A program made the position numbers and the translations under genes. A stretch of DNA of 6,857 nt, taken from IMG/VR virus record IMGVR_UViG_2648501206_000004, positions 1-6,857 of that record; one strand, written 5' to 3'. The notes beneath the pieces are model-generated. The model searched no databases. It had not been told where the DNA came from and worked only from the letters and a program-made list of their open reading frames with translations. Positions 569-6,857 of this stretch are shown here, one piece after another. Origin of the DNA: a virus. Its lineage: Duplodnaviria; Heunggongvirae; Uroviricota; Caudoviricetes. Every line of letters starts with the position of its first letter. The stretch's first letter is position 1.

Positions 569-590
569 AAATGCCCCTGCGGGGGCATTT
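569..590 (+). terminator. Putative intrinsic terminator or attenuator hairpin after the first ORF
   Basis: Perfect 9-bp inverted repeat AAATGCCCC / GGGGCATTT with a 4-nt loop TGCG, 13 nt after the stop. The T-tract is short (TTTAT), so termination may be partial. Confidence 0.45.
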
Positions 591-683
591 ATGGAAACGT
601 AATTGACTCAATAATCGCCGGATGGTGAGGGCTTCCTTTTACCAGAATTCAGCGTGGTGCAGCACATATACGCGGAGAACAAA

Positions 684-1220
684 ATGTCATTTATTAAAAC
701 TTTTTCCGGGAAGCATTTTTATTATGACAGGATAAATAAAGACGACATCGTGATTAACGATATCGCGGTTTCCCTTTCAAATATCTGTCGCTTTGCCGGT
801 CATCTTTCACACTTCTACAGTGTCGCCCAACATGCGGTGCTTTGCAGCCAGCTGGTGCAGCAGGAATTTGCTTTTGAAGCGTTAATGCATGATGCAACAG
901 AAGCATATTGCCAGGACATCCCCGCGCCACTGAAACGCCTTCTTCCTGACTATAAACGGATGGAAGAAAAAATAGACGCCGTAATCCGTGAGAAATACGG
1001 GTTACCTCCTGTTATGAGCACGCCAGTGAAATATGCCGATCTCATTATGCTGGCAACCGAACGCCGCGATCTCGGGCTTGATGATGGCTCTTTCTGGCCG
1101 GTACTGGAAGGCATCCCGGCAACAGAGATGTTCAACGTGATTCCAATGCCACCGGGCCATGCCTACGGGATGTTTATGGAACGCTTTCACGAGTTATCGG
1201 AGTTACGCAAATGCGCATGA
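684..1220 (+). CDS. yfdR: HD-domain phosphohydrolase (5'-deoxynucleotidase YfdR/YfbR-like)
   Basis: HD-superfamily motifs are visible in the translation: FAGHLSH, then LMHDATEAY (the HD dyad), then PVKYADLIML. Start placed at ATG 684 (MSFIKTF...) with a GGAG Shine-Dalgarno 6 nt upstream, rather than the GTG at 654 in the ORF track. This gives 178 aa, the length I recall for K-12 YfdR. The symbol rests on motif and recalled length and synteny, not a search. Confidence 0.8.
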   Translation: MSFIKTFSGKHFYYDRINKDDIVINDIAVSLSNICRFAGHLSHFYSVAQHAVLCSQLVQQEFAFEALMHDATEAYCQDIPAPLKRLLPDYKRMEEKIDAVIREKYGLPPVMSTPVKYADLIMLATERRDLGLDDGSFWPVLEGIPATEMFNVIPMPPGHAYGMFMERFHELSELRKCA

Positions 1221-1573
1221 ATGTTTTCGAAATGGAAGGGTTTCTTCGCGGGAGATGTGTACCACGAGACCTGAAAGTGAATGAAACGGATGCTGAATAC
1301 CTGGTGCGTAAATTAGATGCGCTTGAAGCTAAATGTGCAGCACTGGAAAACAAAGTAATACCAGTGTCAGCTGAACTGCCACCAGCAAATGAAAGTGTTC
1401 TGTTATTTGATGCTAACGGAGAAGGCTGGCTGATTGGCTGGCGTTCTCTCTGGTACACATGGGGGCAAAAAGAAACCGGAGAATGGCAGTGGACATTTCA
1501 GGTCGGGGACCTTGAAAACGTCAATATCACTCACTGGGCAGTAATGCCGAAAGCACCGGAGAATAAGAAATGA
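1211..1573 (+). CDS. yfdS: Small prophage hypothetical protein (YfdS-like)
   Basis: 120-aa ORF overlapping the upstream stop (ATG at 1211 with GGAG 8 nt upstream; an alternative ATG at 1217 forms an ATGA overlap with the stop at 1218..1220). Coiled-coil-like N-terminus. The symbol is inferred from position after the HD gene and from the recalled 120-aa length of YfdS. Confidence 0.55.
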   Translation: MRMNVFEMEGFLRGRCVPRDLKVNETDAEYLVRKLDALEAKCAALENKVIPVSAELPPANESVLLFDANGEGWLIGWRSLWYTWGQKETGEWQWTFQVGDLENVNITHWAVMPKAPENKK

Positions 1574-1785
1574 GCGTGATAAAAACTCATACAGGAATTG
1601 TTATTACCCGAAACGGTCCGCAGGTAAAAAAACTGCACCAGACAAAGCGGATGTGGGTCGTCGGAAAAAACGAGTTTTACCACAAAGAAACCGGACGCCG
1701 CCACTTTGCAGAAAATACGCGCCGCCGACTGCTCCTGGACAGCATCAGGCCAATTAAACAGGTAGCAACCATAGAACAAAATTAA
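1570..1785 (+). CDS. Small basic prophage hypothetical protein
   Basis: 71-aa ORF whose ATG overlaps the upstream stop as ATGA (1570..1573), with GGAG 8 nt upstream. Lys/Arg-rich. No family recognised. Confidence 0.5.
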   Translation: MSVIKTHTGIVITRNGPQVKKLHQTKRMWVVGKNEFYHKETGRRHFAENTRRRLLLDSIRPIKQVATIEQN

Positions 1786-1846
1786 TTATCAGGACTGAAA
1801 TTTGATATTACTGCCCGTGTGCAGCGGGTTAAGTGGAGAAACAGCC

Positions 1847-2056
1847 ATGGCAAAACTAATGAAAGCGAGCCAATGGGGACGCCGTGAATTCTCTAATGGC
1901 TCAATTCCTGACAACCGAACGATAAAACGCTGGGTCGAGAACGGTCTGCTCATGGGGCGTATCGTGGACGGTTCTGTTTTTGTCTGCGAAACAGAAAAAT
2001 GGGGAGTCGACTCAATGGTTAGTCAAGCTGTTCGCAAGTTAATAAATGAGGGGTGA
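1847..2056 (+). CDS. xis: Excisionase (lambda Xis-like recombination directionality factor)
   Basis: About 69 aa from ATG 1847 (GGAG at 1835..1838). The translation (ASQWGRREFSNGSIPDNRTIKRWVENGLLMGRIVDGSVF) parallels the lambda Xis winged-helix region (QEWNARQRRPRSLETVRRWVRECRIFPPPVKDGREYLF). The stop abuts or overlaps the integrase start, the classic xis-int arrangement. The TTG start at 1802 in the ORF track is considered less likely. Confidence 0.7.
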   Translation: MAKLMKASQWGRREFSNGSIPDNRTIKRWVENGLLMGRIVDGSVFVCETEKWGVDSMVSQAVRKLINEG

Positions 2057-2058
2057 CC

Positions 2059-3237
2059 ATGGCGGCAAGGCCACGTAAAAAAGAATACAGACATCTTCCT
2101 GATTATCTGATTTTTGATAAAGATCGAGGTGTTTATAAATTCACACTTATTACCGGAAAGAAGAAAAATATAGGTAAGGATAGGGCAATAGCCATTGCAA
2201 TCGCCAGAGAGTACAACCTGAGGATGCGACCAGAATTATCTCCATCAGTAGATAATCTTATTAGAGAATCTGGCGGTGTTATCGGAGAAGCAAAACCATT
2301 TGCTGAACATGTTGATCACATAATGGCCCGAATTATCGAAGACGAACGTCCTTCCCAGAGCACCTTAGATGACTGGAAAAATGACGCTCTACGCGTAAAA
2401 GCGTTTTTCGTAAATGTTCCGGCATGCGATATCGAACTTGAACACGTTAATACCTACATCAACAAATATCATGCCAGCGCATCCGCAAATGTGCAGAACA
2501 GAAAGGTCAGCTTTCTTAAAAAGTTGTTCTCTTATGCGGTCGATGAATCACTAATGCTGGATAACCCGGCCATCAGAAAAAAAATGCGTAGGACTGATGA
2601 GAAGAAAAGACGGCGCCTGTCACTCGAGCATTTTATAGCTATCAGGCAGGCCGCTGCACCATGGTTAAGAACAGCAATGGACCTAGCATTGCAGACTACA
2701 CATGCACGACTCGAAGTATCGCGAATCCGTTACTCAATTCGCGAACCTAAAGACGGTATATGTGGATGTGTCTGGTTCGAACAACCACAAAATGGCATAT
2801 ATGGGACGCTTTACATCCACAGGCAAAAAGTGCAACAAAAAGAGGCGTCACACGTTGCAATACCAATTGGTGAAGAGTTGAAACGGATAATTGACGATAG
2901 CCGAGATAATGTGGCCAGTCCGTTTGTCGTTCACAGGCTCCCAGAACGCCAAGTTAAACGCAGCAAAGAGGTTTCACATCCTACTCAAGTTGCACCGGAC
3001 TATTTGAGTAGGTCGTTTTCAGCTACACGGGACAAACTAGGTTTATGCGACAATCTACCAATGGATGAAAGACCAACCTTTCACGAAATTCGAGCACTAG
3101 CAGCGCATCTATTCGATCAGCAGGGTATCGATCCACAAGGACGAATGGCGCACAGCGATGCGAAGTCAACCAAGATCTACACGCAAAATCATATAGATTG
3201 GGTTGTCGTTCCCCATGGAGAAATTAAAGCCAGCTAA
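2059..3237 (+). CDS. int: Tyrosine site-specific integrase, lambda Int family, with N-terminal arm-binding domain
   Basis: The N-terminus (MAARPRKKEYRHLPDYLIF...GKDRAIAIAIAREYNLRM) parallels the lambda Int arm-binding domain (MGRRRSHERRDLPPNLYI...GRDRRIAITEAIQANIEL). The C-terminus carries HEIRALAAH (box II H-x-x-R) and AHSDAKSTKIYT, with the H-to-Y spacing of lambda Int H333/Y342. Start placed at ATG 2059 (GAGGGG Shine-Dalgarno 6 nt upstream); a GTG at 2053 would overlap the xis stop as GTGA. Confidence 0.92.
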   Translation: MAARPRKKEYRHLPDYLIFDKDRGVYKFTLITGKKKNIGKDRAIAIAIAREYNLRMRPELSPSVDNLIRESGGVIGEAKPFAEHVDHIMARIIEDERPSQSTLDDWKNDALRVKAFFVNVPACDIELEHVNTYINKYHASASANVQNRKVSFLKKLFSYAVDESLMLDNPAIRKKMRRTDEKKRRRLSLEHFIAIRQAAAPWLRTAMDLALQTTHARLEVSRIRYSIREPKDGICGCVWFEQPQNGIYGTLYIHRQKVQQKEASHVAIPIGEELKRIIDDSRDNVASPFVVHRLPERQVKRSKEVSHPTQVAPDYLSRSFSATRDKLGLCDNLPMDERPTFHEIRALAAHLFDQQGIDPQGRMAHSDAKSTKIYTQNHIDWVVVPHGEIKAS

Positions 3238-3271
3238 TAATAAATTACTCCCTTTATTGCTTTAGTATAAA

Positions 3272-3303
3272 GCAGAGCAAACCAAATTGGACGGGTTGCT
3301 CTG
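3272..3303. terminator. Bidirectional intrinsic terminator hairpin between convergent int and the cargo gene
   Basis: Inverted repeat CAGAGCAA(ACC) / (GG)TTGCTCTG at 3273..3283 and 3293..3303 with a 9-nt loop, about 35 nt past the int stop and 28 nt past the cargo-gene stop. The flanks are AT-rich on both sides. Confidence 0.5.
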
Positions 3304-3330
3304 TGTTGGAAGTTGAGGAATGTATTAATT

Positions 3331-4182
3331 TCAAAGTGAGTAATTGGAGAGTTCTTCAATCATTGACCGATAATGTATACCGATACTATCGGCAAATTTT
3401 TCGCCCATCCCCTCAACTGACGCAATTAGGCAGTCTGTAGCAACCTTCAGGGATATTATGACTAAGCAGATGTCAGCTTCACTGGGTGCACCATGACCGC
3501 TAAATTCATCAATCCTGTGGATAGCCAGTGGCAATGGATGAGCCAGATTTGATAGTAACTGGTGATGTAGTGCAATGTCGGCTAACCGCGGGCAGCGAGC
3601 TTCGAACTCAGCTTTGGTATAATACATTTCGGCCCTGTTTTTGAGACTATTCTTTTGTTCTTTAGATAGTGAACTATAGAATTCATGGTTCACTATCTCC
3701 TCCTGCTGCTTTGGTATGCCGGTGAAAAACTCCTCCAGTGATTCTTCAGATTCACCAGCCTTCAGTCTGATATCACGCCATTTAACATTTCTGTCTTTCT
3801 GGAAAATTCGAAAACGAAAGTCAGCCTCCGCTTCCGAGACCGTTTCCGTTCCGTAATAAAAAAGCGCCTGAAAATTTTCCATCACACTTCTGGACACAAG
3901 TGCGATAGTGGTTACATCCCATACTGTATCATCGGGATTAACTCCGTTTCGCAGTACTGGTAGTAGTTTCTTAAGACTATGCGCAGTCAACACTTGACGA
4001 GTGAAAATATTTGCAGCCCGTATTCCCCTGCCGTCAGTCTTAATTCCGCTTTGATTCAGTGATATGGCCGCGGAAATTTCACAAGCGCGGCAGAAGATCT
4101 TATAAAGGCTAATGTAAGACCTCTCAACCTCAGTGTGTTCTCGGAAACGAATGTTACTGCCTTTTTTAGTTCTTTTTTTCAT
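3331..4182 (-). CDS. Orphan cargo (moron) protein of unknown function, 283 aa; candidate accessory or defence gene
   Basis: Long minus-strand ORF convergent with int. ATG at 4180..4182 is preceded on the mRNA by AGAGG with a 7-nt spacer. Hand counts on two 60-nt samples inside it gave about 40% and 47% GC, against about 53% for one sample in the downstream autotransporter. Basic N-terminus (MKKRTKKGSNIRFREH). Two R-x6-H spacings in the C-terminal half (RLADIALH, RIDEFSGH). I do not recognise the family. Confidence 0.7.
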   Translation of the reverse strand: MKKRTKKGSNIRFREHTEVERSYISLYKIFCRACEISAAISLNQSGIKTDGRGIRAANIFTRQVLTAHSLKKLLPVLRNGVNPDDTVWDVTTIALVSRSVMENFQALFYYGTETVSEAEADFRFRIFQKDRNVKWRDIRLKAGESEESLEEFFTGIPKQQEEIVNHEFYSSLSKEQKNSLKNRAEMYYTKAEFEARCPRLADIALHHQLLSNLAHPLPLAIHRIDEFSGHGAPSEADICLVIISLKVATDCLIASVEGMGEKFADSIGIHYRSMIEELSNYSL

Positions 4183-4374
4183 TATCCAGCCTCTAGTAGT
4201 TTATTCTGGCATTATGTCACACAACTCTTCGAAACTATTCAAACATGGGGAGAAACCACCATGTAAGCCATTGAAGTATATAGAGCAGATTATGTCGAAA
4301 AAGCACTGTTTGTTTATACATGCAAATGGTACTTCTAACCAGCAATAGCGCGGCTCTCAGCGTTTTACAAGCGG

Positions 4375-4423
4375 CGTCATGGGGTGTCGGGGGTCGGAGG
4401 TTCAAATCCTCTCGTGCCGACCA
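4375..4423 (+). repeat. Prophage att core: 3' 49-nt fragment of tRNA-Pro(GGG) (proL-like), lacking the 5' half
   Basis: Anticodon loop AUGGGGU (anticodon GGG), T-arm GGAGG-TTCAAAT-CCTCT, acceptor 3' strand CGTGCCG, discriminator A and CCA are all present. The complementary 5' acceptor strand CGGCACG is absent from the preceding 100 nt, so this is not an intact tRNA. It matches my recollection of the E. coli proL 3' end. Confidence 0.65.
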
Positions 4424-4431
4424 AAAATCCC

Positions 4432-4463
4432 AAAAAAAACCAACCGTAAAGGTTGGTTTTTTT
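4432..4463. terminator. Rho-independent terminator, bidirectional (native tRNA-Pro terminator; also serves the convergent autotransporter gene)
   Basis: A8-CCAACC-GTAAA-GGTTGG-T7: a 6-bp GC-containing stem extended by an A-run/T-run, with a 5-nt loop. It lies 9 nt after the tRNA CCA end and about 60 nt past the minus-strand autotransporter stop. Confidence 0.8.
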
Positions 4464-4524
4464 ATATCTGCATTTAATTCGATAAACAGACCGCGACACA
4501 TCACGGCCTGTTTATTGTCTGTTA

Positions 4525-6857
4525 TCAGAACGTCCAGACCACACCCGCCTGGGTATTCCACGGCGATTCTACCCCTGCGCCATTGCCATAGCTGACTGAC
4601 AAATGACCGCTTAACGTCGGGGTAAACGATGACCTTATCCCAGCCTGATAAACGCCACTGGTTCCAGCCACATCATTATTAAATTTGCCATCGTCATTAA
4701 CTTTCACCTGGTTAGAATCGGCGTATTCCTGACGCACGGCGGCTTTCAGCCAGGGTTCCAGCGTCGTACCGTTTTGCAGGTCCATGTGATAGCTTACCGC
4801 CGTTCCCGCTTCAGCGCGTAATATCCGGGTATTTCCCACGTCCGCGCGCATGCCGTTTGATAACGTGTAGTCCTGACCATCTGTGGTAAAGCCGGTAAAG
4901 GCCAGATAGGGTCTAACACTCCACAATCCGTCAACCCAACGGAACCCGCTCTCAACATGAGCACCCGCGCCGTTACTATTGTAATCGCCAAACGCTGTTG
5001 CCCCATTACTCATCTTGCCATGGATGGTGTTGGCAAAACGGTCAACTTTCACCACCCCATCAACATAGGCACCGTTCTGATGCTCCCAACCGGCATAAGC
5101 ACCCAGGGTATAGCTATCGACATTGCCTTTGCCGCCGCGATCAAAACCAATATCAGAATGAGAGTAACCAAAGAACAAGCCGCGAATTGTGCTGCTTTCT
5201 TCACGGGAGAAACGGCTATCGATACCGAGCGTCAGGCCCGTCAATGTTTGCTCAAAACCAGCTCCCGCATCAGTGGTCACGTTGTTGCGGGTGTTAATTG
5301 CCGAACTCCACATCGCCGTATCGTAACTAACGCCTTTTACGCTACCAAGACGCTCACGCACGGTGTCCAGTTCTGCATCAAATACCAGCGGTTGTGCGGC
5401 CGCCATATTCAGCACATCAGTGGTTGAAGGGGTAATTTGCGCGCGATTCTCTGCCAGACTCCAGCTATGGTTGCCATTATCCAGCAAGGTATATTCATAC
5501 GTACCGATATCAACAACGCCTCCGGCATTGCCCAACGTAAATGCAGCATCACCGCCGCCCGTTGTTACCAGTGTAAGGCTATCTCCTGCTGCCGGGCTGG
5601 CACCGGTGTCCGTCACGAATATTTTGAAATCACCTGTTGCCTGACCGGTGACGTTGAGCTGATCGCTCTGATGATTAGCCATATCGGTACGCATATAAAA
5701 ATTGCCGTTTCCCGACAGGGTATTGGTGGTCAACGTAATGAAATTTTTCGCACTTGCCGTCACTGATGAACGAGTCACTGGCTCATCCATCATAATCACA
5801 TTTGCGTCAGACATCGCAAGGTTGGCTAAGTTGAGGAGGGTGTTTTGGTTCGTCGTAGTGATATCGGCAATGATGGTCCATACGCTATTTTCGAGCGAAA
5901 CGTCCGCTTTGCTGGTATCCACGGCACCATGCGTTCTAAAAGAAGCGCCCTCAGAAACCACTACCTTACCCACCAACATTGCGGGTGCATAATTTATTTG
6001 CGGCTTCATGACCTCAAGAATGCCATCATTCCCTCTGACTGACACGTTAACCATTGTGCCAGCCCAGACGTTAGCGCGGCCATTGTTGATAACCATATTT
6101 TCAGAGATGGCTTTTGAGGAATACGTGATACTTCCATTCTGATCTGATCGACCGAGATCATATACCGCATTTGCCTGCACTCTCGTCCCAGTATCCTTTC
6201 CCAGCGATTGCATAGTGGCATGCTCATCAAGGATAGTGTCAATGGCCTGCGTGTCCTCCATAACAATAAGCCCGGAACCATCATCCAGTTCATAATTTTT
6301 TGACACACCATCTTTTATACTAAATTGGCCTTTACTGTTTGTACCACTCACTTCCAGCGCATTCGTTGAGACAATTAATTTTCCGCCTGCTTTTTTATCA
6401 ACGCCAGTTGCAGTCCCGCCATCCATAACCTCCAGTAAGCCGCCACTATCTACAGTAGTATTATAAGCGAAGTCATTTTCTTCAACTCGCAAACTTCCGC
6501 CGTTTTCCAACAGCATATTGTTTGCAATTCCATTCTTGATATCGAACTGACCGAGACGGTTTGTTCCGAATACCTCCATGACCCGCGTGGTTGCTTTAAT
6601 AGCACCGCCTGCCTTCTGATCTACCGCAAATGCTAATCCCCCGTCTTTAACCTCCAGTAATCCTCCCTTTTCGATAGCGGCAAAGACGGCAATCCCATCT
6701 TTTTCAACAATTAAGCGCCCGCCTTTAATCGTGGGATCATTCGCCGCGCCATAAACCTGTAGCACACCATTATTGAGCGTAGTCTGGTTTGCCGCGCCAC
6801 CCATTTGAACAATTTGATAACCATCATTTAATACTGAGTACTGATGAATCCCCTAAT
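4525..6857 (-). CDS. yejO: AIDA-I/Ag43-type autotransporter adhesin, N-terminally truncated by the window edge (YejO-like by position)
   Basis: The C-terminus ends ...PWNTQAGVVWTF, a typical autotransporter beta-barrel terminus, preceded by about 280 aa of alternating-polarity beta-strand sequence. The passenger region has repetitive G-G-x-L-x-V motifs typical of a beta-helix. The reading frame stays open from 6804 to the window end at 6857, so the true start is outside the window. The symbol is by synteny only: as I recall, K-12 has an autotransporter gene, yejO, immediately downstream of proL on the opposite strand. Confidence 0.85.

Follow-up and report, generated by a model that had tools for sequence, protein, structure and literature searches.

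The 192-bp spacer between a cargo gene and the attachment-site core (positions 4183-4374 of the 6857-bp stretch of DNA analysed here, hereafter the window) is probably composed of two independent modules joined end to end at ~4245: a cargo leader, which would hold the cargo gene's own promoter, and an arm of the phage attachment site, which would be bound by integrase (Int) and accessory recombination proteins. The spacer is bounded by the cargo ATG (4180-4182, reverse complement) and by the block of identity between the two prophage ends, whose first base is 4375. The first-pass annotation had described it as an AT-rich sequence of about 190 bp acting as a single regulatory region. Its length was correctly given; the AT-richness is only moderate, with a GC content of 40.6% vs 46.4% for the whole window (36.5% in the left 62 bp and 42.6% in the right 130 bp), and the single region gives way to two modules that meet at ~4245. 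The features of the locus are collected in Table 1.

Table 1 Features of the window, with candidate and predicted elements marked as such.
Feature	Position	Strand	Remarks
Phage early genes, yfdQ-, yfdR- and DUF551-like	left end of window		
Xis-like small protein, 69 aa	1847-2056	+	Directly upstream of int, overlapping its start; position kept in relatives
Tyrosine integrase (int)	2059-3237	+	PF09003, phrog_1
Hairpin between convergent int and cargo genes	3273-3303		Inverted repeat I4
Cargo gene, 283 aa, all-helical product	3331-4182	-	Convergent with int; divergent DUF5677 superfamily member
Cargo-specific leader	4183-4244	-	Found only with this cargo type; homology to other prophages begins at 4240-4247
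Predicted extended -10 element, TGACATAAT	4211-4219	-	TG-n-CATAAT; one of 3 such motifs in window
Int-proximal arm of attP	4245-4374		Conserved block beside core
Candidate arm-type Int site, TGGGGAGAAACC	4246-4257	+	Outermost element of int-proximal arm
IHF-like site and A/T element CTATATA	4264-4283	-	Conservation across 27 arms
Conserved blocks GATT(T/A)TG (4288-4294) and GCACTGTTTGTTTATACA (4302-4319)	4288-4323		Conservation across 27 arms
Core-proximal part of arm	4324-4374	+	Less conserved (conservation profile)
attL/attR identity block, 57 bp	4375-4431	+	3' 49 nt of proL (4375-4423) plus 8 nt
Host proL terminator hairpin	4433-4463		13-bp stem, then T runs; also a terminator when read on minus strand; inverted repeat I1
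yejO	4525-6804	-	Carries in-frame stop

The window is the right junction (attR) of a prophage in the E. coli tRNA-Pro(GGG) gene proL, adjoining yejO. The tRNA/yejO side is matched in 5426 of 5426 complete E. coli genomes; the cargo gene is matched in one of them, strain EC20-4B-2 (locus L001). The L001 prophage is 98.7% identical to the window over 573-6840 and sits between an intact proL (tRNA-Pro, anticodon GGG) and a junction equivalent to that of the window. Comparison of the window with the intact proL and with attL of the L001 prophage defined the 57-bp identity block, and this two-end comparison therefore identifies the window as attR in the lambda sense, in the order phage arm, core, host. 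The earlier placement of the att core from the window sequence was correct. ARAGORN finds no complete tRNA in the window, the tRNA piece present being a 3' fragment. Crossover probably takes place inside the identity block, near the anticodon loop. In a relative integrated at a secondary site next to ppx (L010), the switch to foreign sequence comes immediately after ...GACAT, which puts the crossover close to the anticodon loop, on its 5' side, at ~130 bp from the arm-type site described below.

The boundary between the two modules is sharp. Among the 5426 E. coli genomes, 82 match the spacer, and all of these matches except that of the near-identical genome start at window positions 4240-4247; the segment 4183-4239 is present in only 1 genome. 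The segment 4245-4374 also occurs in phage Eeyore and in many viral contigs that carry this integrase, beside differing cargo or none; in loci sampled from across the matches it lies behind an integrase of one and the same family. From 4245 on, the alignment of 27 distinct copies of the block needs only one gap, of one base, and conservation is patchy; to the left of 4245 the copies are unrelated. The int stop codon is separated from the arm by 3-29 nt in seven cargo-less loci, Eeyore included, and by 1007-2313 nt in cargo-bearing loci. The differing left flanks and this spacing together assign 4183-4244 to the cargo and 4245-4374 to the int-proximal arm of attP. On this comparison the arm is older than the cargo, and the promoter would travel with the cargo. 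At the DNA level the spacer had no match in the phage collection, and the phage relatives were found through the integrase protein instead. A repeat search within the window detected no repeated motif inside the spacer.

The outermost element of the arm is the strongest candidate for an integrase-binding site. Every arm begins with (A)TGGGGAGAAAC, its GGGG is invariant in the 27 distinct arms, and homology between loci starts there. The first-pass annotation had proposed an alignment with the att region at the other prophage end as a means of finding shared arm-type repeats, and such an alignment did reveal a shared motif, in three tandem copies per distal arm. In the intact attP of Eeyore, the other arm carries GGGGAATCAT, GGGGAAAAAT and GGGGAATAAT just past the phage terminator, as a tandem array of like orientation with a spacing of 11 nt; the corresponding sites in attL of the near-identical L001 prophage are GCGGAGAAATA, GGGGAATAATT and GGGGTAAAACA. 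A triple tandem array with ~11-nt spacing is present in 6 distinct distal arms (Eeyore and five others, including L001). A matrix built exclusively from distal-arm sites, 12 tandem sites from four loci (three of other phages plus L001), has its best match in the whole window, on either strand, at 4247-4257 (13.0 bits; P 0.003 against shuffles of the spacer). The reciprocal matrix, built from the proximal sites, detected 1 to 3 plus-strand sites past the phage terminator in 7 of 7 distal arms (6 distinct), and the number of three copies per distal arm was established by direct reading of the sequences together with this matrix. Since the window itself holds a single copy of the motif, the assignment rests on the relatives. 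The threefold presence of the 11-nt motif in their other arm makes 4246-4257 a likely arm-type site, predicted to be bound by the N-terminal domain of the integrase. The second-best match to the distal-arm matrix, at 3243-3253 on the minus strand just past the int stop codon, is absent from loci with any other cargo type and was treated as a chance match.

The integrase has the domain that such a site calls for. Consistent with the lambda-like N-terminal arm-binding domain assigned earlier, residues 3-58 match PF09003 with 26.7 bits against a cut-off of 22. The match to PF00589 (19.4 bits) falls below its cut-off of 27.1, the phrog_1 integrase profile is matched with an E value of 5.7e-30, and tblastn aligns the protein with known phage integrases over its full length. 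A near-identical protein is named 'phage integrase Arm DNA-binding domain-containing protein' in RefSeq. For the Xis-like protein, weak matches only were obtained, to the phrog_629 excisionase profile (E 0.0046) and to an HTH domain.

Inward of the candidate Int site lies a putative IHF site. The sequence TAAGCCATTGAAG (4264-4276), which reads CTTCAATGGCTTA on the minus strand, has two mismatches to the IHF consensus WATCAANNNNTTR, and the family consensus CATCAATGAGTTA has one. The positions specified by the IHF consensus, TAA at 4264-4266 and ATTGA at 4271-4275, are invariant or nearly so in the 27 arms, and variation within the block is greatest at three of the four N positions. Next to the site is an invariant A/T element, TATATAG (4277-4283). 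Because of its two mismatches, the window copy is called IHF-like only; taken with the conservation across the family, 4264-4283 is a candidate IHF site. Farther towards the core, ACTGTTTG and ACA are invariant in the 27 arms. By their position, the blocks at 4288-4320 may be sites for the Xis-like protein, and no repeat that would define Xis sites was found in the conserved arm blocks. The earlier expectation of Int, IHF and Xis sites near the core is thus matched by candidate sites for the first two, and for the third no Xis repeat could be defined.

From these motifs we infer a mode of protein binding similar to that of lambda. Read from the cargo side, the arm would present the arm-type site ~130 bp from the crossover, then an IHF-induced bend, then possible Xis sites and finally the core. 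With the proximal site and the three tandem distal copies, a heterobivalent integrase of the lambda type would be able to bridge arms and core, and such bridging would serve both integration and excision.

On the other side of the boundary, the cargo leader contains a Shine-Dalgarno sequence, AGAGG, at 4194-4190, 7 nt before the cargo ATG. The extended -10-like element that had been noticed about 30 nt upstream of the start codon is indeed present: TGACATAAT is the reverse complement of 4211-4219, and the hexamer, with 5/6 matches that include A2 and T6, has its last base 28 nt upstream of the ATG at 4182. Motifs of this class, counted as TGn followed by a hexamer with at least 5/6 matches and with A2 and T6 kept, occur 3 times on the two strands of the 6857-bp window. 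At least one such motif arose in 3.6% of dinucleotide shuffles of the 62-bp leader and in 11.5% of shuffles of the whole spacer; a chance probability of 0.04-0.12 is not small, and the rarity of the motif is suggestive, not decisive. No usable -35 accompanies the element, the hexamers in question being AATAGT at 17-bp spacing and TTGAAT at 20-bp spacing, and the site does not rise above background in a consensus scan or in a crude two-hexamer matrix. That matrix places nothing in the spacer above background (best score 7.7 vs 7.3 ± 1.6).

Comparison with related loci is more informative. In three further loci, whose identity to the window in the shared region is 89%, 81% and 79%, cargo, leader and prophage have diverged together. 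Downstream of the -10, most of the leader sequence has been replaced in these loci. The extended -10 is recognizable in L092 as TGGCATACT and in the ~79% identical locus (L094) as TGGCATAAT, in L094 with its distance from the ATG unchanged; the hexamer of one orthologue is CATACT. A Citrobacter homologue in an unrelated context (L096) has TAACATAAT, with the hexamer CATAAT, at an equal distance, and in more distant cargo homologues the distance of the -10-like hexamers differs. Retention of the extended -10 in diverged orthologous leaders makes a cargo-borne promoter likely. We therefore lean towards a predicted extended -10 promoter of the cargo gene with a start near 4204 on the minus strand. 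It would be the cargo's own sigma-70 promoter, of the extended -10 type with no useful -35, firing leftward, away from the att site, and a start at this position would give a ~22-nt leader with a good ribosome-binding site. That the cargo gene needs a promoter here, as had been assumed, agrees with the terminator scan, which flagged the proL hairpin as a terminator on the minus strand (4463..4433), downstream of yejO; hairpin and T run insulate the cargo gene from yejO.

The position of the predicted start bears on whether recombination proteins act on the cargo promoter. The first-pass annotation had suggested that Int arm sites could overlap this promoter and couple cargo expression to lysogeny or excision. 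No such overlap is seen: counted from the predicted start, the candidate Int site spans about -42 to -53, and 26 nt separate its end from the TG at 4219-4218, so that it abuts the core promoter and is clear of both the -10 and the TG. Int, IHF and Xis assembled at 4246-4257 might nevertheless regulate the promoter by touching or excluding RNA polymerase, with expression shifting on induction or excision, since the site borders the -35/UP-element zone, in which activators and upstream elements exert their effect. KplE1 (CPS-53) offers a precedent: recombination proteins bound in its att arm repress the intS promoter, the IntS and TorI sites in attL overlapping that promoter and one arm-type site covering its -10 (Panis et al. 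2010, PMC2951348). The two loci resemble each other in having a promoter next to or within an att arm at a tRNA gene, where recombination proteins can act on transcription. They differ in that the KplE1 promoter drives int and the predicted promoter here an unrelated cargo, and the overlap of arm or RDF sites with core promoter elements seen in KplE1 was not found in the window. The spacing between site and promoter is kept in the orthologous loci L092 and L094, but only because the whole block has been inherited together. Other cargo modules lie 110-300 bp from the arm or are in the opposite orientation, and since cargo occurs in both orientations and at varying distances from the arm, coupling to excision is not a designed feature of the site. 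Moreover, recombination leaves ~170 bp upstream of the promoter unchanged, because promoter and arm are both on the phage side of the crossover, and the promoter arrived with the cargo and fires away from the att site. Regulation of the cargo promoter by Int is possible, and nothing computed indicates it; given a site that abuts the core promoter without overlapping it, coupling to excision is speculation. On balance we regard regulation of this kind as unlikely.

A second set of signals lies within the arm itself. The pair TAAACA-16-CATAAT (4316..4289) is the only minus-strand two-hexamer match in the spacer and could be the working promoter of the cargo gene or a second one, with a ~100-nt leader and with a tie to the intasome or to the SOS response. 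A T-to-A change at 4292, found only in the window, in L001 and in L048, improves the family hexamer CAAAAT to CATAAT, and the -35 of the pair falls inside a LexA-box-like 20-mer (4304-4323). Against this, the consensus scan that found the pair returned 3 matches where 2.3 ± 1.5 are expected by chance, and its two-hexamer matrix score of 6.2 is below the background mean. The same arm sequence accompanies cargo on the opposite strand or no cargo, so it is not maintained as a cargo promoter. The overlapping LexA-like box is itself imperfect in the window, where it reads CTGT-N8-ACAT and is without the G of CAG. A cargo promoter embedded in the arm is thus quite unlikely, and the extended -10 element in the leader is the promoter we prefer.

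The LexA-like box was scored with a matrix built from a set of known boxes. The window copy scores 12.3, below the 13.4-26.4 of that set, and departs from the LexA-box form CTGT-N8-ACAG with an AT-rich centre; this form is present in 9 of the 27 relatives, with scores of 17-22. With the LexA box, the weak leftward pair and the Int site abutting the cargo promoter, the att arm might be not only a scaffold for recombination but also a regulatory hub, a view that we consider decidedly doubtful. If it were true, recombination and the expression of any defence-type cargo in the hotspot would both be under the direct control of DNA damage and intasome assembly. The box that is perfect in a third of the relatives and degenerate in the window overlaps the -35-like hexamer. 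A text search of the literature found no description of a LexA site inside an attP arm.

The conserved 130-bp block might also owe its conservation to something other than protein binding, being a decayed tRNA copy with its upstream sequence, a small RNA, a small ORF or a passenger that hitch-hikes with int. A faint likeness links the block with the 5' half of proL, and in one relative (L002) the RefSeq annotation has a tRNA-Pro at the equivalent place. Local alignment of 4320-4374 with the proL 5' half is not significant, however (P about 0.1), and ARAGORN, run on 22 loci, finds no tRNA apart from the host gene. Small ORFs cross the block; they are un-annotated in the near-identical RefSeq locus, and the small ORFs across the spacer are not genes, in agreement with the earlier view that they probably are not. 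No Rfam family is found in the spacer, all sub-threshold matches lying on the terminator/yejO side, and folding of the alignment revealed no compensatory changes (covariation term -0.36 kcal/mol), which makes a structured RNA unlikely. Short conserved blocks at fixed spacing, the fit to the IHF consensus and the recurrence of the boundary motif in the other arm argue for a protein-binding arm, and hitch-hiking would not yield an abrupt boundary exactly at the motif across loci with different cargo. We thus find it very improbable that the block is anything other than an att arm. Least tenable of all is a cargo gene without a promoter of its own, read through from the host gene yejO: yejO does lie upstream on the same strand, but a hairpin with a 13-bp stem and a T run stands between the two genes on the minus strand, yejO has an in-frame stop, and in the free phage the upstream neighbour of the cargo gene would be a different one.

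In lambda, attP and attR are laid out in the order P1-H1-P2-X1-X2-F-H2-core-H'-P'1-P'2-P'3, and the lambda record annotates four Int-binding regions. The locus described here shares with lambda a heterobivalent integrase of the PF09003 type, a small Xis-like gene just upstream of int, one arm with a distal arm-type site followed by an IHF site, and another arm with three tandem arm-type sites, the sites here being candidates. The differences are substantial. The integrases are only ~26% identical (matches to HK022 and mEp235), the motif GGGGA(G/A)AAAC is unrelated to the lambda arm-type motif, and the long arm holds a single recognizable arm-type site with no equivalent of P2. In addition, the long arm adjoins int, whereas int of lambda abuts the three-site arm, and the core lies within a tRNA gene. 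A 17-nt match of the spacer to the X2/F region of lambda attP was marginal (P about 0.02) and was not used.

The closest isolated phages are Eeyore and Flotzy (PP925821, PP925827; integrase 77.6% identical). The attP of Eeyore has the same parts, namely the arm motif 3 nt past the int stop codon, an IHF-like site, the 3' part of proL, a terminator of its own and the three tandem motifs. It differs in having no cargo between int and arm and in carrying a perfect LexA-type box in the arm.

The same gap between int and arm is occupied by a wide range of genes in other members of the family. At least 12 unrelated cargo types, on either strand, were found there, among them SMODS with SLATT, an AAA ATPase pair, a RelA/SpoT-like gene, a gene for a DUF2971 protein (PADLOC candidate PDC-S31), HEC-08 (DUF3644) and several genes without a family; other loci have none. 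Part of this cargo matches known or candidate defence families (HEC-08, PDC-S31, PDC-S33, RelA_SpoT and SMODS with SLATT). Cargo is thus present, absent or replaced at a fixed position between conserved flanks, as is expected of a moron or hotspot. Insertion that spares both int and the arm would be possible only within the short stretch from the int stop codon to the outermost arm site. So narrow an insertion-tolerant gap would turn the position into a hotspot for cargo and would also explain why a cargo promoter comes to lie right beside an arm site.

Defence-gene hotspots are known in P2-like and P4-like prophages and satellites (bioRxiv 10.1101/2021.01.21.427644; NAR 2026 gkag898). The hotspot next to int resembles them in its fixed position between conserved flanks and in its variable, partly defence-type cargo. 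It differs in belonging to another phage family and in its position, from the int stop codon to the outermost arm-type site, and the cargo in the window matches no known defence family. The arrangement is ordinary in kind, a moron with its own predicted promoter in a permissive gap beside a lambda-type att arm, and current understanding is not overturned. It is new in detail, as an undescribed att site at proL with a defined candidate arm motif. These data provide a concrete map of the uncharacterised att site of a proL-integrating E. coli prophage family, and would explain the pile-up of accessory genes at one exact position by the sole insertion-tolerant gap, from int stop to outermost arm site. 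The gap can serve as a search anchor for new lysogen-expressed genes, of which the DUF5677-like gene of the window is one candidate.

The product of this cargo gene has 25 close relatives, all enterobacterial. The protein itself is not matched in Pfam, PADLOC, PHROGs or NCBIfam, and PADLOC yields no known defence family at E values up to 1. Its relatives at 39% identity do match DUF5677, and a profile search with the protein gathered 839 representative clusters, with DUF5677 in 7 of 10 sampled members and fusions to RES, AAA or DUF1353 domains in some. The predicted structure is an all-helical bundle (pLDDT 79.8), for which fold matches were uninformative. Judging by its neighbours at the hotspot, a role in phage defence or in another conflict system is at most a reasonable guess. 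Behind the cargo stop codon lies the I4 hairpin, with 11-nt arms that are 91% complementary and a 9-nt loop; it was not flagged by the terminator scan, and could possibly be a terminator shared by int and the cargo gene.

The few bases between the stop codon of int and the outermost arm-type site constitute a cargo hotspot, which corresponds to 3238–4244 in the window. Comparison of this interval with the related loci L002–L010 and L028–L071 showed that the distance from the int stop to the arm-type site is 3–29 nt in cargo-less relatives versus 1.0–2.3 kb elsewhere. The cargo includes RelA_SpoT-like, PDC-S31 (DUF2971), PDC-S33, HEC-08 (DUF3644) and SMODS+SLATT types as well as an AAA ATPase pair, and is found in both strand orientations among the related loci. 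The cargo protein of the window (3331–4182, minus strand) is assigned by sequence to the uncharacterised DUF5677 superfamily, as a divergent member. This superfamily comprises 839 representative clusters, and fusions to a RES toxin domain, an AAA ATPase or DUF1353 occur in some of its members. For the cargo protein, structure prediction gives a helical bundle that shows only a weak HEPN-like resemblance.

A 13-nt inverted repeat surrounds the gap between int and the cargo gene. Its left arm starts 6 nt past the int stop and, on the minus strand, is the second-best match in the window (11.3 bits) to the arm-site matrix, which was built from the distal-arm motif copies of relatives. This left arm was not found in other cargo types. 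The repeat is probably due to chance; it could be a remnant of the process of cargo insertion.

Repeat and LexA-box-like features of the window and of phage Eeyore
Feature	Sequence	Location	Remark
LexA-box-like 20-mer	CACTGTTTGTTTATACATGC	window 4304–4323	within the conserved att arm; LexA matrix score 12.3
LexA-box-like 20-mer, counterpart		L091 (phage Eeyore) 4757–4776	
13-nt inverted repeat, left arm	AATTACTCCCTTT	window 3243–3255	flanks the int–cargo intergenic region
13-nt inverted repeat, right arm	AAAGTGAGTAATT	window 3333–3345	flanks the int–cargo intergenic region

The int-proximal att arm contains the top LexA-like site of the whole window, by a wide margin, in which CAT replaces the CAG of the SOS box. 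A perfect CTGT-N8-ACAG is present in 9 of 27 distinct related arms, with LexA scores of 17–22, values comparable to those of known SOS boxes of E. coli. No gene is in an obvious position for control by the 20-mer of the window, and a text search of the literature turned up no publication describing a LexA site inside attP. In this phage family, SOS-related genes adjoin the att site. In L001, the near-identical prophage of E. coli EC20-4B-2, a DinI-like pseudogene adjoins the distal att arm and is preceded by two good LexA-type boxes (4501–4548; scores 19.4 and 15.0); UmuD-like and DinI genes occupy the equivalent position in phage Eeyore.

At window position 4292, a T-to-A change relative to the family consensus, in common only with L001 and the related locus L048, converts CAAAAT to CATAAT. 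The resulting hexamer is the −10 element of the sole two-hexamer promoter-like match in the spacer.

Relatives of the prophage also reside at other sites, adjoining ppx in L010 (3501–3700) and the primase gene of another element in L009 (3501–3700). The L010 sequence leaves attP directly after ...GACAT, a breakpoint that suggests crossover close to the anticodon loop, on its 5′ side. In L002, the RefSeq annotation includes a complete tRNA-Pro (2602–2679), equivalent in position to window 4345–4423, with a 5′ half that comes from the phage arm; ARAGORN makes no call of this tRNA. The phage arm may derive from a whole tRNA gene, but the tRNA resemblance of the window arm is not significant.

Elements or remnants at proL have the distal arm in common more often than the proximal arm. 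Of 5426 E. coli genomes, 264 have the distal arm with the phage terminator and three tandem motifs (L001 4321–4470), CFT073 and APEC O1 among them, whereas only 82 have the int-proximal arm. In the neighbouring yejO, an in-frame TAG at window 6853–6855 (minus strand), upstream of the listed ORF start, agrees with the annotation of the near-identical genome, where yejO is marked as a pseudogene with an ‘internal stop’.
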